NCBI GenBank assembly: GCA_003566775.1
Contig: PXBW01000079.1
Span: 18,635-82,634 of the forward strand
From: a candidate division WS1 bacterium
GTDB taxonomy: Bacteria > Armatimonadota > Zipacnadia > Zipacnadales > UBA5352
Length of the DNA stretch: 64,000 nucleotides
Reading direction: 5' to 3'
Positions 10,219 through 21,833 of this stretch are shown piece by piece. The notes beneath the pieces are model-generated. The model worked only from the letters and a program-made list of their open reading frames with translations. It ran no database searches and was not told the DNA's origin. How positions within the stretch are numbered: the first letter of the stretch is position 1; every line of letters begins with the position of its first letter. A program made the position numbers and the translations under genes.

Positions 10219-11436
10219 GTGGGAGGAGACAGAGCAGTGCAGCGCACTTACGCAGGTGATGATTCCGGACGGGCATGCGCGGTGACGCGCGGCCCGAAGC
10301 ACCATTGGTTCGGCTACTACGACAAGTGTCCGTGGAGCGCCGACGGGCGCTACATGCTGGCGATGGAAGCGGATTTCATGGATCGTCCGGGCCGCCCCGA
10401 TGATTCGATTCGCGTCGGCCTGGTAGATCTCGAGGAGGGCGACGGGGAATTCCACGCGCTCGACGAAACCCACGCGTGGTGCTGGCAGCAGGGCACGATG
10501 CTGCAGTGGCTCGGCACCGACCCGAATCGCCTGATCATCTACAACTCCGTGGAGGACGGGCGGTACGTCTCGATCATCCGCGACATTCACTCCGGCGAGA
10601 CGCGGACGATTCCGCGACCCATCTATGCAGTCAGTCCCGACGGGACACAGGCGATCGGCCTGAATTTCGCGCGCGTGAATCGGACCCGTCCGGGTTACGG
10701 CTACCGGGCCCTTCCTGACCCCACCGAAGGCGAGATGCATCCCGAGGACGATGGAATCTGGCATATTGACCTCGAGACGGGCGAGACTGAGCTTGTCATC
10801 ACCATCGATCAGATCGTCGGCATCGCTTATCGCCAGAGCATGGAGAACGAGAACTGGTTCAATCATATGCAGTTCTGCACCGATGGTAGCCGCTTTGTCT
10901 GGCTGCACCGCTGGTACCGACCGGGCGCCGCGAGCGACAAGTTCAGCGGTAAGGCGCGCTTCACCCGCATGTTCACCGCAAACCCGGACGGCTCGGACAT
11001 CTACCTGCTGGCCGACGACGATATGGTCTCACACTTCGACTGGCTCGATGAGCGGCATATCGTTGCGTGGGCGCAGCATCGGCAGATCGGAAGCCGGTAC
11101 TTCCTCTACCGCGATGAGAGCCCGTGGCTTTCGGTCGTCGGCGGCGACGTCTTCACCAGCGACGGGCATATGTCGTACTCACCAGGCGACCGGAGGTACT
11201 TGCTCACGGACACCTATTGGGACGCGGAGATGAAGCGCTCGCTTCTTATCTATGACACGGAGACCGGCGCGCGCGCGGACCTCGGGCGCTTCCTGTCGCC
11301 GAGGCGCTACTCCGAGGAGATTCGCTGCGACCTGCACCCGCGCTGGAATCGCGACGGCACGCAGGTGTGCTTCGACTCGATCCACGAGAGCACGCGGCAG
11401 ATGTACGTGATCGACCTCGAAGGCATCGTGGAGTAG
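10219..11436 (+). CDS. oligogalacturonide-lyase-family (TolB-like beta-propeller) protein
   Basis: About 400 aa. Repeated DG/SPDG blade motifs and a C-terminal CDLHPRWNRDGTQVCFDS motif typical of the Ogl family. Likely start is the in-frame GTG at 10237, 9 nt after a GGGAGGAG RBS. Confidence 0.55.
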   Translation: MGGDRAVQRTYAGDDSGRACAVTRGPKHHWFGYYDKCPWSADGRYMLAMEADFMDRPGRPDDSIRVGLVDLEEGDGEFHALDETHAWCWQQGTMLQWLGTDPNRLIIYNSVEDGRYVSIIRDIHSGETRTIPRPIYAVSPDGTQAIGLNFARVNRTRPGYGYRALPDPTEGEMHPEDDGIWHIDLETGETELVITIDQIVGIAYRQSMENENWFNHMQFCTDGSRFVWLHRWYRPGAASDKFSGKARFTRMFTANPDGSDIYLLADDDMVSHFDWLDERHIVAWAQHRQIGSRYFLYRDESPWLSVVGGDVFTSDGHMSYSPGDRRYLLTDTYWDAEMKRSLLIYDTETGARADLGRFLSPRRYSEEIRCDLHPRWNRDGTQVCFDSIHESTRQMYVIDLEGIVE

Positions 11437-11485
11437 GGCCGTCGGCTAACGCACAGCAACCCGCGTCGGTTGGGAGGCGCATTCG

Positions 11486-12178
11486 ATGATCTGTTACATA
11501 GTCACCGAGACGCGCGAGAAGTACGATGAGATGGACTGCCACGCAATCAAGCACGACCTCGAGAAGCTCAGCGGCGACCTGTGCCTGGTCATGCACTTCA
11601 GCCAGGTGACGCGCGAGTTTGTCGATGATGTACGGCCGTGGGCGATCTGCCACTCGGGAAAGTCCACGCCGCTGGCCGAGTACGACCTGATGGAGCATGA
11701 GCAATACCGGTGGCTCATCACCGAGTCCGGTGTTCCGCAGATCGGCTTCTGTGGTGGCAAGAACATCATCGTGGAGATGTTCGGCGGCTCCACCGGCAGG
11801 ATGCGCGAGCTGCGGCCCGATGAGCCGGACCTCGCGCCACAGTACCGCCAGGGCTGGTTCAAGGAGTGGGGCGTGTGGCCCATCGAGATCGTGGCCGACG
11901 ATCCGCTCTTCGCATGGCTCGACAGCCCGATCCGGGTCTGGGTCATGCACTGCGGCGAGACGACGATGATCCCCGAGGGCTTCCGGCTTCTCGCCTCGAG
12001 CGCCGACTGCCGGGTCCAGGCGCTGGTGCATGAGGAACTGCCGCTCTACGGCACACAGTTCCATCCCGAGAAGCGCCAGGAGGGCTATCCGGACGGTTTC
12101 CGGGTGCTCTCCAACTTCTTTGACATCGCGCGCGAGCACCATGCATCGCAATCACGGCCGCCGGGAGGCACCAGATGA
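11486..12178 (+). CDS. class-I glutamine-amidotransferase-like protein (peptidase C26 / PuuD-like gamma-glutamyl hydrolase family), copy 1
   Basis: 230 aa. Nucleophile elbow GFCGG and C-terminal YGTQFHPE (His-Glu of the Cys-His-Glu triad). Stop overlaps the next start (ATGA). Confidence 0.75.
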   Translation: MICYIVTETREKYDEMDCHAIKHDLEKLSGDLCLVMHFSQVTREFVDDVRPWAICHSGKSTPLAEYDLMEHEQYRWLITESGVPQIGFCGGKNIIVEMFGGSTGRMRELRPDEPDLAPQYRQGWFKEWGVWPIEIVADDPLFAWLDSPIRVWVMHCGETTMIPEGFRLLASSADCRVQALVHEELPLYGTQFHPEKRQEGYPDGFRVLSNFFDIAREHHASQSRPPGGTR

Positions 12179-12834
12179 TCTGCTATATCGTGACCGAGAC
12201 ACGCGAGAAGTACGACGAGATGGACTGCCACGCGATCAAGCACGACCTCGAGAAGCTCAGCGACGACCTGTGCCTGGTCATGCACTTCAGCCAGGTGACG
12301 CGCGAGTTCGTCGATGATGTACGGCCGTGGGCGATCTGCCACTCGGGAGGCTCGACGCCGCACGACGAGTACGACGTGCTTGAACGCGAGGATTACACCT
12401 GGCTGATCACCGAATCGGGCGTTCCGCAGATCGGTTTCTGCGGCGGGCATCAACTGATCGCGGAGATGTTCGGCTCCGAGGTGGGCACCATGCGCGAGCT
12501 TCGCGACGACGAAGCGGATCTCAATCCCGACTATCATCCGGGTTTGTTCAAGGAGTCGGGCGTCTGGCCGGTCAGGATCATAGCTGAGGACCCGCTGTTT
12601 GAGGGCCTACCCGAGCTAATCCGGGTGCGACAGTCCCATCGCAGCGAGGTCAAACAGCTTCCCGCGAGCTTCCGGCTATTGGCGTCGAGCGCCGACTGCG
12701 AGATCCAGGCGATAGTGCACGAAGAGATGCCGCTCTACGGAACGCAGTTTCACCCGGAGAGCCGCCTGGAGAACTATCCGGACGGCCATGCGATCGTGAG
12801 CAACTTCTTCGGCATTGCGCGAGAGCGCGGATAG
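12175..12834 (+). CDS. class-I glutamine-amidotransferase-like protein (peptidase C26-like), copy 2 (tandem paralog)
   Basis: 219 aa. First ~58 residues identical to copy 1 except one substitution, and the first ~170 nt are nearly identical. Same GFCGG and YGTQFHPE motifs. The remainder diverges to roughly 60% identity. Confidence 0.75.
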   Translation: MICYIVTETREKYDEMDCHAIKHDLEKLSDDLCLVMHFSQVTREFVDDVRPWAICHSGGSTPHDEYDVLEREDYTWLITESGVPQIGFCGGHQLIAEMFGSEVGTMRELRDDEADLNPDYHPGLFKESGVWPVRIIAEDPLFEGLPELIRVRQSHRSEVKQLPASFRLLASSADCEIQAIVHEEMPLYGTQFHPESRLENYPDGHAIVSNFFGIARERG

Positions 12835-12913: not shown

Positions 12914-14314
12914 ATGCGCTTCATGGAGCCGGAGGACCTCGCGCGCATCAACGAGCGCAGCCTCGATCTGCTGGAAGAGATCGGACTGCGCATCGACCAC
13001 GAACTTGTGACCGAGAAGCTACTTGCCGCCGGCTGTCGCGAGCTTACCTCCGGGATGATCTCCTTCCCGCGCGAGCTTGTCGCCGCGTGTCTGGAGCAGG
13101 CGCCGTCGGAGGTGCTGCTTGCGCCGGTCGAGGGTGAGCCCGCTCGCATCGGCCCCGGCGGCGACACGGTCTTCTGGACCGGCAACGCGCTCAGCTACGT
13201 CGAGGGAACCGAGGCCCGCCCGATCAATGAGCCGGAATTCATCGCCCTGACCCGTGTCACCGACGCGCTGGAGCACGCACAGGCGGCGGTGGGCCCCACG
13301 ATCGACGATATCCCCGCGCAGTTCCGCGACTTCGTGGGATGCCGGATGCTTGCGCAGCACACGCGCAAGCACCTGCGCCCGTGCATATACACACCCCGCG
13401 GCGGGGCGGCGATCGTCGAGATGGGCCGCGTGCTGGCAGATCCGGATCCGCTGCGCGAGCGGCCGGTGGTCAGCTTCGGGTATACGTCGGTCAGTCCCCT
13501 GCACTGGACTGAGCCGGGGCTGGAGATGTTCGTGCAGACCTCCGGACACGGTGTGCCGATGATGATCAACTCCGAGCCGACCGCGGGCGCGACCTCACCC
13601 GTCACGCTCGGAGGAACGCTGATGCTCGCGAATGCTGAGGCGCTGTCGGGCGTGGTAATCGTGCAGACGCTCGAACCCGGTCGTCCGTGCGTCTTCAACC
13701 TCGGCTTCGCGCACACGATGGACATGCGCCACGCGATCACGCGCACCGGCGGGCCTGAGAACGGTATCATGGGCGCAATCGGCGCGGAGCTTGCGCGCAT
13801 GCACGGGCTGCCGAGCGCCTCATGGATGAGCACCGAGTCGATGGTGGTCGACGAGCAGGCGGCGTGGGAGAAGATGAACGTGGGCCTGATGCACGCGCTC
13901 GCGGGCGTCAATATCATCTGGGGCATGGGGCAGCTTGAGTCACAGCGCGTGCTGTCTCCGGAGATGATGGTGATCGACGACGAGATCGCGGGCGCCGCGC
14001 TGCGGGCGGCGAGAATGCCCGAGGTTGACGACGAATCGCTGGTATATGACGCGGTCGCGGAGATGGCCGCCGTGCCTGACTACCTCAGCCACCCGCACAC
14101 CCTCGCCTACTTTCGCACCGAGCTTTTCGAGCCGTCGCTGGGCTTCGTCGGGCGGCGTGAGGGCTGGGAGGCAGAGGGTGCGCGGTCCGCAGTGGAGAGG
14201 GCGCGCCAGCGAGTGGACGAGATCCTCGCGCGGCCAGAGCAGCCGCGTCTCGACGAGGACCGCGAGCGCGAACTGCTGCGCATAGAGTCGCGCTGGAAGG
14301 AGGAGCTTGCGTGA
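12914..14314 (+). CDS. MttB-family (trimethylamine / glycine-betaine:corrinoid methyltransferase superfamily, non-pyrrolysine) protein
   Basis: About 466 aa from the ATG at 12914, with a GAAAGGACG RBS. C-terminal family signature VPDYLSHPHTLAYFRTELFEPSL. Uninterrupted: no in-frame amber codon. The ORF track starts further upstream at 12815. Confidence 0.7.
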   Translation: MRFMEPEDLARINERSLDLLEEIGLRIDHELVTEKLLAAGCRELTSGMISFPRELVAACLEQAPSEVLLAPVEGEPARIGPGGDTVFWTGNALSYVEGTEARPINEPEFIALTRVTDALEHAQAAVGPTIDDIPAQFRDFVGCRMLAQHTRKHLRPCIYTPRGGAAIVEMGRVLADPDPLRERPVVSFGYTSVSPLHWTEPGLEMFVQTSGHGVPMMINSEPTAGATSPVTLGGTLMLANAEALSGVVIVQTLEPGRPCVFNLGFAHTMDMRHAITRTGGPENGIMGAIGAELARMHGLPSASWMSTESMVVDEQAAWEKMNVGLMHALAGVNIIWGMGQLESQRVLSPEMMVIDDEIAGAALRAARMPEVDDESLVYDAVAEMAAVPDYLSHPHTLAYFRTELFEPSLGFVGRREGWEAEGARSAVERARQRVDEILARPEQPRLDEDRERELLRIESRWKEELA

Positions 14315-20714: not shown

Positions 20715-21833
20715 TCAGAGATTGAACATCGGCACGTCGGTCGGCTCCGGTATTCCGTAGATCTCCCGCTTGGTGCGCAGGTAGAACAGGTAGTCATCGT
20801 AGCTCACATCCGGCGGCACACGGTGATCGACGTGGGGTATGAAGCCGCCCTCATCGACCAGCGGTTTGAGGCGCCTGACCTCCTCGACAATGGCGTCCGG
20901 GCCTGCAGCAAGCGCGCGCTTGTTTACCCCGCCCATCATCAGCACCTCCGGCCCCCAGCGCCGACGGATCTCGAGCGGATCGGAGCCTGCCGCGACCTCG
21001 ACCGGGAACATGCAGTTGACCCCACCCTCCAGCCAGCCATCGATGGAGTCGGTAATGTTGCCGTCGGAATCGACGTAACAGAGAGTCGCGCCCATCTGAT
21101 ACATCAGATCGGTGATGCGTGAGTAGCGCGGGGTCAGCCACTGATGAAACATCTTCGGCGAGATGATGCAGCCCTGCTTGAAGTTTATGTCCTCCCAGAA
21201 AGCGCCGCAGTCCACCTCGCAGCCGGCCTCCACCGCAGGCTCGATGACCGCGCAGGCAAGCTGACAGACGTGCTCGACCATCTCCTCGATAAGCTCCGGG
21301 TCGTCGTAGCACATCACTGCGATGCTCTCGAAGCCGATGTAGTTGCGCAGCTTGCCGAAGAGGCTGCCGCCGTGAATCTGCACGGGAAGCTCGGATTCGC
21401 GCGTGCGCCGCGCGATCTCATCCCAGTCATCGCGGTAGCGGGCCGGGTCGTCGATGCGCAGACGCTCGCGGAACTTCTCCCACGACGCGCGGTCCTTTAT
21501 GGGGAACTCGAGATAGCGCGGGATGGTGTCCTGTTCGTCGAGGTACATGATCTTCTTCACGCCCTCGGCGTCCTGCACAACCTTGTATTCGTCGGTCTGC
21601 TCGATGACGGTGGTCTCGAACGGCGGATGCAGACCGACTGCCGAGGGGACCGTCATTCTTCCCTCGAAGCCGAAGAACTCGTCGGCGACCTCGTTGTTGT
21701 CGATCTCCCCGGGAAGTCCCTCCTGGTGCCATCTCGTAAAGGTATCATCCCAGTAGCCGAACTCCCGGTCGGGTACGTGATCGACCGGCTCGTAACTCAT
21801 GCACGCCACGAAGCGCTGTCGCTGATTCATCAT
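20715..21833 (-). CDS. uroporphyrinogen-decarboxylase (URO-D)-family protein (MtaA/CmuA-like methyltransferase fold), function unknown
   Basis: 372 aa. URO-D-family TIM-barrel features and length. No corrinoid protein gene nearby. Confidence 0.7.
   Translation of the reverse strand: MMNQRQRFVACMSYEPVDHVPDREFGYWDDTFTRWHQEGLPGEIDNNEVADEFFGFEGRMTVPSAVGLHPPFETTVIEQTDEYKVVQDAEGVKKIMYLDEQDTIPRYLEFPIKDRASWEKFRERLRIDDPARYRDDWDEIARRTRESELPVQIHGGSLFGKLRNYIGFESIAVMCYDDPELIEEMVEHVCQLACAVIEPAVEAGCEVDCGAFWEDINFKQGCIISPKMFHQWLTPRYSRITDLMYQMGATLCYVDSDGNITDSIDGWLEGGVNCMFPVEVAAGSDPLEIRRRWGPEVLMMGGVNKRALAAGPDAIVEEVRRLKPLVDEGGFIPHVDHRVPPDVSYDDYLFYLRTKREIYGIPEPTDVPMFNL

Follow-up and report, generated by a model that had tools for sequence, protein, structure and literature searches.

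Evidence for a short, recent gene conversion between anciently duplicated tandem GATase-fold paralogs in a candidate division WS1 bacterium

The window, as the whole analysed stretch of 64,000 nucleotides (contig PXBW01000079.1 of a candidate division WS1 bacterium) is called here, contains two tandem genes of the class I glutamine-amidotransferase (GATase) fold, A and B, whose 5' parts are far more alike than the remainder. This pattern is very probably the product of a short, recent gene conversion between two paralogs that were duplicated long ago. A tree of codons 21-58 groups A and B by genome, whereas the remainder of each gene groups with its paralog type, and it is only in codons 21-58 that synonymous divergence collapses; partial gene conversion, one of the possibilities raised in the preliminary description of this DNA, is thereby supported. 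The hallmarks of gene conversion are present, as over one segment the paralogs are closer to each other than to their orthologs, at synonymous sites as well, the trees of different segments are incongruent, and the tract is longer than expected by chance.

The gene pair, its protein family and its neighbourhood

As seen in Table 1, A and B lie on the same strand, and the starts of the direct repeat are 689 bp apart. Both open reading frames and their overlap were found as previously described, with the ATGA in which A stops and B starts. The start of A also reads ATGA (ATG ATC). The overlap of A and B is an ordinary operon start/stop overlap, a type of arrangement often linked to translational coupling, and the A-B spacing varies among the tandem pairs from a 4-nt overlap or a 1-nt gap to gaps of 5, 8, 8 and 26 nt. 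The sequence GGGAGGC, which matches the ribosome-binding site of B, is also found upstream of A at 11472-11478; its presence before both genes is consistent with a duplication unit that may have included the ribosome-binding site. Searches of the window with tblastn and blastn for a third copy or an external donor yielded no more than A and B themselves.

Table 1. Features of the A/B locus, in positions of the window
Feature	Position	Strand	Details
Upstream neighbour, 399-aa beta-propeller with oligogalacturonate-lyase-like fold	10237..11436	+	AF2 pLDDT 90; Foldseek 3pe7/3c5m, TM 0.63-0.68
Gene A, A-type class I GATase-fold paralog, 230 aa	11486..12178	+	ORF; PF00117 E=4e-14
First 20 codons of A	11486..11545	+	Protein identical to B 12175-12234; 7 synonymous differences
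Tract copy in A (gene nt 61-174, codons 21-58)	11546..11659	+	112/114 identical to B copy
Codon 59 of A (AAG, Lys), 3' edge of tract	11660..11662	+	B counterpart GGC (Gly) at 12349-12351
Shine-Dalgarno GGGAGG of B, within region coding the C-terminal tail of A	12163-12168	+	Followed by ATGA at 12175-12178
Gene B, canonical-motif GATase-fold paralog, 219 aa	12175..12834	+	ORF; PF00117 E=1.3e-23
Tract copy in B	12235..12348	+	Mismatches at gene nt 89 (G30D) and nt 135 (synonymous)
Downstream neighbour, MttB-superfamily methyltransferase homolog, 466 aa	12914..14314	+	Uninterrupted ORF; PF06253 E=3e-73

The PF00117 scores are 53.1 bits for A and 84.1 bits for B, at a gathering cut-off of 22.8. 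Cys89 (in GFCGG) and His193-Pro-Glu195 (in QFHPE) are present in both proteins and invariant in 34 family members, and these catalytic-triad motifs align at the sequence level with their counterparts in 2d7j. Where B carries the SGG loop and GGHQ, all 8 A-type sequences, A included, carry SGK and GGKN. Residues 92-93 are accordingly Lys-Asn in A and His-Gln in B, and MHCGET in A takes the place of SHRSEV in B. The roles of the oxyanion-loop S-G-G and of the His-Gln that follows the nucleophile are established for GMP synthase and CPS. For the AF2 model of B (pLDDT 95.4), the top Foldseek matches are all GATase subunits (E=6e-18, TM 0.75/0.87). The match to Peptidase_C26 (PF07722) is weaker than that to PF00117 (E=8e-9 vs 1e-23) and spans residues 78-195, half of the profile.

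The nearest solved relatives by both sequence and fold are archaeal GMP synthase subunits A (GuaAA; 2d7j, 1wl8, 7d97), with E=2e-25 for 2d7j. The SGG loop, the G-x-C-x-G-H-Q nucleophile elbow and H-P-E are common to this subunit and B, whereas A is without the second Gly of SGG and without His-Gln. In contrast to GMP synthase subunit A, the A/B family has an insertion of roughly 20 residues around 106-125, and A and B have as neighbours a beta-propeller and an MttB homolog rather than an adjacent GuaAB/ATP-pyrophosphatase. A and B score below every NCBIfam equivalog cut-off; the best match, GMP synthase subunit A (NF001975, cut-off 198), gives 84.9 bits for A and 101.6 for B. No recognisable synthase partner gene adjoins the pair. 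Since the score is below the cut-off and the partner gene is absent, A and B are, judged by sequence, class I GATase-fold proteins and not GMP synthase subunit A. Homologs carry the label Peptidase C26 or gamma-glutamyl-GABA hydrolase (PuuD-like) in several database sources; unlike that family, A and B have no polyamine-pathway genes nearby.

The upstream 399-aa protein had no match in Pfam or PDB sequence searches and was placed by fold search only. A homologous gene of about 400 aa, also without a Pfam match, lies directly upstream wherever the contig reaches (the window, L001, L002, L163, L166, L168, L169, L171 and L175). The best PDB match of the downstream MttB homolog is glycine betaine methyltransferase (9yce/2qne, E=1e-42), and an MttB gene follows the GATase gene or genes in L001, L002, L163, L164, L166-L168 and L174. 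Among the loci that extend far enough, L175 is the exception, with a gene lacking a Pfam match at this place instead of MttB. Across nine loci the conserved neighbours are the beta-propeller, the MttB homolog and a DUF3093-like protein, with no GuaAB ATP-pyrophosphatase. Relatives carry the label Armatimonadota.

Extent of the tract and age of the duplication

Over residues 1-58, A and B are identical at 57 of 58 positions, G30D being the sole difference, which agrees with the single differing position of the preliminary description. Over residues 59-219 the identity is 103/161 (64%), close to the roughly 60% given there. At the nucleotide level, nt 1-174 are identical at 165 of 174 positions (94.8%), with 8 synonymous differences and 1 non-synonymous difference, and nt 175-657 are 68% identical; the overall divergence between the genes corresponds to a dS of about 1 and a dN of about 0.3. 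The near-identity once attributed to the whole of the first 170 nt or so holds for nt 61-174 (112/114) but not for nt 1-60, where 7 of the 8 synonymous differences fall and divergence is at the background level. In these first 60 nt, 88% of positions are identical, with a pS of 0.70 and a pN of 0.00, and codons for the same amino acid differ about as often in codons 1-20 (7/18) as in codons 59-219 (43/99; Fisher P=0.80). Because the synonymous sites have diverged to background while the protein is identical, codons 1-20 lie outside the recent tract and are conserved by purifying selection on the protein. The functional constraint proposed earlier thus explains the first 20 identical residues (pN 0, pS 0.70), but it does not extend to a separate N-terminal module, for residues 1-58 form part of a single GATase domain (its strands b1-b3 and helices a1-a2). 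Residues 1-58 are alike for two different reasons: selection accounts for codons 1-20, and conversion for codons 21-58.

A very different picture is seen in codons 21-58, where only 1 of 35 codons for the same amino acid differs, against the 43/99 of codons 59-219 (Fisher P=2e-6). The pS in this segment is 0.04 within the window pair and 0.32-0.49 for A vs B between genomes, and nucleotide identity is 98% within the pair and 75-83% between genomes; with a segment of only 114 nt, Nei-Gojobori estimates such as these, and neighbour-joining (NJ) bootstraps, are noisy. Nucleotide alignment with sliding windows confirmed that divergence is not uniform, the pS trough being confined to codons 21-60. 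Within the genome pS falls to 0.00-0.16 only where codons 21-60 are covered, while between-genome A-vs-B values there are 0.31-0.46, and elsewhere the two curves coincide. In a GENECONV-like permutation, restricted to polymorphic sites and otherwise ignoring site-rate heterogeneity, nt 61-174 gave the lowest P value that the test allows (P<=2e-4). Among the cross-genome controls, most were non-significant and one reached P=0.004. The perfect-match runs within the tract are 28, 45 and 39 nt long. Additionally, the variable patch at residues 44-50, which differs between genomes, reads EFVDDVR in both window copies. In the NJ tree of codons 21-58, the A and B of the window (W_A and W_B) are joined with 100% bootstrap and those of L163 with 86%; in a protein tree of 50 family members, residues 1-58 join W_A and W_B with 91%, and the A-type N-termini are not a clade. 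The GC and GC3 of the tract (0.61 and 0.87-0.89) are not distinctive and give no sign of biased conversion.

It could be supposed that no recombination took place, and that very strong purifying selection on both protein and nucleotides, through an embedded RNA or DNA element or through codon or translation-initiation constraints, has kept the segment alike. The N-terminal third is indeed the best-conserved protein part of the family, with a within-pair pN of 0-0.02 and many invariant columns. However, codons 21-58 show a pS of 0.32-0.49 in every between-genome comparison and residues 44-50 change, and as between-genome synonymous divergence there is ordinary, nucleotide-level constraint cannot explain the identity. 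Moreover, codons 1-20 encode equally conserved protein and nevertheless have a within-pair pS of 0.70, and a translation-start constraint would be expected at the very start of the gene rather than in codons 21-58. Constraint without recombination is therefore highly improbable.

The duplication itself is old and predates the compared lineages. Look-ups of exact proteins gave six further tandem pairs (L163, L164, L169, L171, L177 and L178), with A upstream of B in every pair, and single-copy loci (L166/L167, L168, L174 and L175). The copy present alone in related genomes is B, with single-copy orthologs in L166, L168, L174 and L175. Pattern scans of genome and metagenome contigs with universal motifs returned generic GATases and no close relatives. 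Among the homologs of B, the A type, marked by Lys59, Lys-Asn92-93 and HCGE, is present in at least 6 other lineages. In an NJ tree of codons 59-219 from five genomes, the A-type and B-type copies form two clades, both at 100% bootstrap, and in the protein tree of 50 family members, residues 59-219 place the seven A-type lineages in one clade, also with 100%. The dS between A orthologs is 0.55-1.15, and A-A and B-B orthologous comparisons together span 0.4-1.2. It is the two clades and the ortholog dS that place the duplication before the compared lineages. With a dN/dS among orthologs of 0.16 for A and 0.21 for B, both genes are kept by purifying selection and neither is decaying. Segment-wise trees are needed for this family, as the duplication would be dated wrongly from whole genes or from N-termini.

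These findings contradict the recent duplication that was also considered in the preliminary description, since the A type forms a separate clade in at least 6 other lineages with a dS of 0.55-1.15 between its orthologs. A version of that idea, in which one copy of a recent duplication diverged very fast by neofunctionalisation over its 3' two-thirds and the 5' end is a remnant, would fit the unusual catalytic-motif substitutions of A (Lys59, Lys-Asn92-93 and HCGE). It is scarcely credible given that the 3' synonymous divergence of about 1.0 is as large as between orthologs of different genomes, that the same diagnostic residues unite the A type of at least 6 other lineages in a 100% clade, and that the first 60 nt are at background synonymous divergence too.

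As the sequences are metagenome assemblies, an artefact in which reads of the paralogs were merged to a consensus in their most similar region was also considered, and is very unlikely. The tandem pair is base-for-base identical in L001 (GCA_007132485.1) and L002 (ENA ERZ27301263). These two assemblies share 8 SNPs and may come from the same sample; each differs from the window by 15 SNPs, all outside the pair, and the three assemblies represent at least 2 haplotypes. The window haplotype thus differs from that of L001 and L002, and the pair is nonetheless identical. Furthermore, the perfect runs of at most 45 nt are much shorter than a read or than the k-mers of the ENA assembly (k=141), the tract still contains two copy-specific mismatches, and unconverted pairs are about 80% identical in the same stretch, too divergent for collapse by an assembler.

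Course of the conversion and comparison among tandem pairs

The following course of events would account for the pair. A stand-alone class I GATase-fold gene was duplicated in tandem long ago, within the conserved propeller-GATase-MttB cluster, and A and B then diverged while purifying selection kept each. In the lineage of the window, a recent non-reciprocal homologous recombination between the direct repeats would have copied about 114 nt (codons 21-58) from one gene into the other. To judge from what is generally known of gene conversion in bacteria, the mechanism was most likely RecA-type homologous recombination or gap repair.

The transfer was probably from B to A. W_A has His37 and Phe38, as W_B does; His37 is found in 31/31 B/C-type proteins, and the A-type lineages have Asn or Ser at position 37 in 4 of 7 cases and Tyr at position 38 in 5 of 7. 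These residues in W_A weakly favour a transfer from B to A. The call of direction rests on two residues, and the N-termini of the A type are mosaics in their own right. No direction emerges from nucleotide identity with other genomes, every comparison lying at 75-83%. Among the 18 gene copies compared at the nucleotide level, Asp30 is present in W_B only, so it probably arose after the conversion event; Asp30 also occurs in the distant B-type homolog P0011. Given its two internal mismatches, the tract may have arisen in a single event with later mutations, or in two or three events side by side.

The 3' boundary of the tract may have been set by selection, by the loss of homology, or by both. 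At codon 59, where the similarity of the sequences breaks down as well, A and B first differ in a type-specific residue of a catalytic motif. This residue is Lys in 8/8 A-type and Gly in 28/31 B/C-type proteins (P0002, P0012 and P0025 are offset by one residue), and in the alignment with GMP synthase subunit A 2d7j, Gly59 of B falls on the second Gly of the SGG loop. In the E. coli GMP synthase, this position (Gly59) is known to contribute to the oxyanion hole. Mapped on the AF2 model of B, the tract runs from the last part of helix a1 through strand b2, helix a2 and strand b3 as far as residue 58. The tract of the L163 pair likewise ends within three codons of residue 59.

When the orthologous tandem pairs were searched for the same mosaic, as had been suggested, tracts were found in 3 of 7 pairs including the window, at varying positions. 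In L163 the tract is shorter (gene nt 123-160; permutation P=4e-4). Both of its copies read ERIEEIE at residues 44-50, and the similar A-type sequence of L164_A suggests a transfer from A to B in L163. The L164 pair has no 5' tract and has instead a tract in the 3' third (nt 491-558; permutation P=2e-4), with a dS of 0.13 in codons 162-200 against 0.5-0.85 in other comparisons. In L169, L171, L177 and L178, whose B copies are cut by the contig end, no tract was found in the part compared, 5' of the cut. Because the six other pairs comprise one with a shorter 5' tract, one with a tract in the 3' third and four with none, in this sample of 7 pairs including the window (four with incomplete B copies), conversion in A/B pairs is recurrent but sporadic. 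Nor is it inherently restricted to the 5' segment, as had been supposed for the window pair.

Selection might also have maintained the similarity through concerted evolution, if A and B share an N-terminal surface for a partner or for each other and conversions that reach the active site are purged. The A-type N-termini never group as one clade, and each tends to be like that of its partner copy (bootstrap support of 91-100% for the window and 46-86% for L163), L169_A (=P0024) groups at 41% with P0022, a relative of its partner, and both 5' tracts, in the window and in L163, end within three codons of residue 59. On the other hand, 4 of the 7 pairs are without an N-terminal tract and the tract of L164 is in the 3' third. 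The same pattern is equally expected if conversion just needs the best-conserved DNA as its substrate, and selection-maintained concerted evolution is judged unlikely.

A more specific proposal of this kind is that A is a catalytically remodelled subunit, with Lys for the oxyanion-loop Gly and Lys-Asn for His-Gln, that partners B in a hetero-oligomer or meets it on a shared partner. Repeated conversion of b2-a2-b3 would then be selected because this part would serve both subunits as a docking surface, and conversion that enters the active-site motifs would be removed by selection. Candidates for the shared partner are the MttB-like methyltransferase and the PL22-like propeller encoded next to the pair. 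This proposal is quite unlikely to be right. If it were true, the mosaic would mark a functional boundary within one domain of an uncharacterised enzyme system, which appears, judged by few source labels, to be widespread in Armatimonadota and related uncultured phyla.

Relation to known gene conversion in bacteria

Short, recent gene conversion between old tandem paralogs remains the favoured explanation of the window pair. On this reading, the pair is a neat textbook case, on a small scale, of the conversion of a short tract between tandem paralogs that have diverged in function. The pair also draws attention to an uncharacterised A-type GATase paralog with altered catalytic motifs in a conserved propeller-GATase-MttB cluster of uncultured bacteria. 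The literature search found nothing on this gene pair or its cluster.

Among bacterial paralogs, tufA/tufB and the rRNA operons are examples of gene conversion, and gene conversion in bacteria has reportedly been reviewed by Santoyo and Romero in 2005. Concerted evolution and gene conversion between bacterial paralogs are well documented, and recurrent cases have been catalogued (Wang & Chen 2018, PMC6053082). The A/B pairs resemble the known cases in the segment-limited similarity within genomes, the incongruent segments, the homogenised synonymous sites and the occurrence in more than one lineage. They reveal no new mechanism; the conversion seen in this uncharacterised GATase subfamily is short, partial and sporadic. 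Compared to the known cases, the 114-nt tract in the window is very short, taking up a sixth of the gene, and the functionally diverged paralogs are otherwise intact. Also, in contrast to long-lasting homogenisation of whole genes, conversion between A and B is sporadic, being seen in 3 of the 7 pairs.

Conversion-Like Tracts in Related Pairs

As seen in the table, shared tracts are displayed by two other tandem pairs of the amidotransferase paralogs A and B. The tract of L164, a related metagenomic contig, lies in the 3' third of both genes and does not involve the 5' end; it is significant by permutation (P=2e-4), and its dS is 0.13 vs 0.5-0.85. The tract of L163, a related locus in GCA_018400775.1, is a second 5' tract, independent of that in the window. 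The patch ERIEEIE (residues 44-50) is common to A and B of L163 and, because it resembles the A-type sequence of L164, suggests a direction of transfer from A to B.

Coordinates of the tracts, genes and reading frames discussed
Feature	Position	Strand	Remarks
Upstream neighbour gene	window 10237-11436	+	399-aa product; no Pfam hit; beta-propeller in AF2 model
Antisense ORF, 301 aa	window 11246-12151	-	opposite gene A; from ORF listing
MttB-superfamily gene	window 12914-14314	+	directly 3' of B; best PDB match 9yce/2qne
URO-D-family gene	window 20715-21833	-	about 6 kb from MttB-superfamily gene
A/B conversion-like tract, L164	757-824 and 1449-1516		gene nt 491-558; FRLLASSADCR...
A/B tract, L163	1577-1614 and 2268-2305		gene nt 123-160; perfect match
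C-type gene, L174	137-805		single copy
C-type gene, L175	6001-6666		single copy
C-type gene, L169	2045-2473		partner of A

A Third Type and the Tail of A

Apart from the A and B types there is a third amidotransferase type, C, in which HQ or CQ follows the nucleophile and which shares the motifs VWEMH and EKRQEGY with A. Since the C type was grouped with the A clade (80% bootstrap), A may derive from a C-type-like ancestor. At its C-terminus A has an additional tail (..HHASQSRPPGGTR, window 12140-12178), which overlaps the ribosome-binding site of B and, in the strain variant P0020, contains a Pro-to-Ser change. As GGGAGGC is found 5' of both starts (window 11465-11489 for A and 12140-12178 for B), the tail may represent read-through into a once-intergenic spacer.

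Neighbouring Genes

The MttB-superfamily gene contains no in-frame stop, and no corrinoid-protein gene adjoins it; the top PDB match of its product is a glycine betaine methyltransferase (E=1e-42). The URO-D-family gene is possibly of the methyltransferase-2 type. SNPs between the window and two other assemblies carrying its pair (L001, L002) are clustered within the MttB-like gene, with 4 in 10 nt (13207-13216) and 3 in 19 nt (14238-14256), suggesting strain-level recombination or local hypervariability. The ORF opposite gene A is one of the long antisense ORFs in the window, which commonly arise in coding sequence of 62% GC; no evidence supporting their status as genes was found.

The propeller gene is conserved and lies immediately 5' of the amidotransferase gene or genes at all loci whose contig extends far enough: the window, L001, L002, three related tandem loci (L163, L169, L171) and three single-copy loci (L166, L168, L175). 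Among at least 6,920 homologs of its product, none bears an informative name. The predicted propeller (pLDDT 90) has as its top PDB fold match oligogalacturonate lyase (PL22; 3pe7, 3c5m), with a TM of 0.63-0.68 and 15-17% identity.
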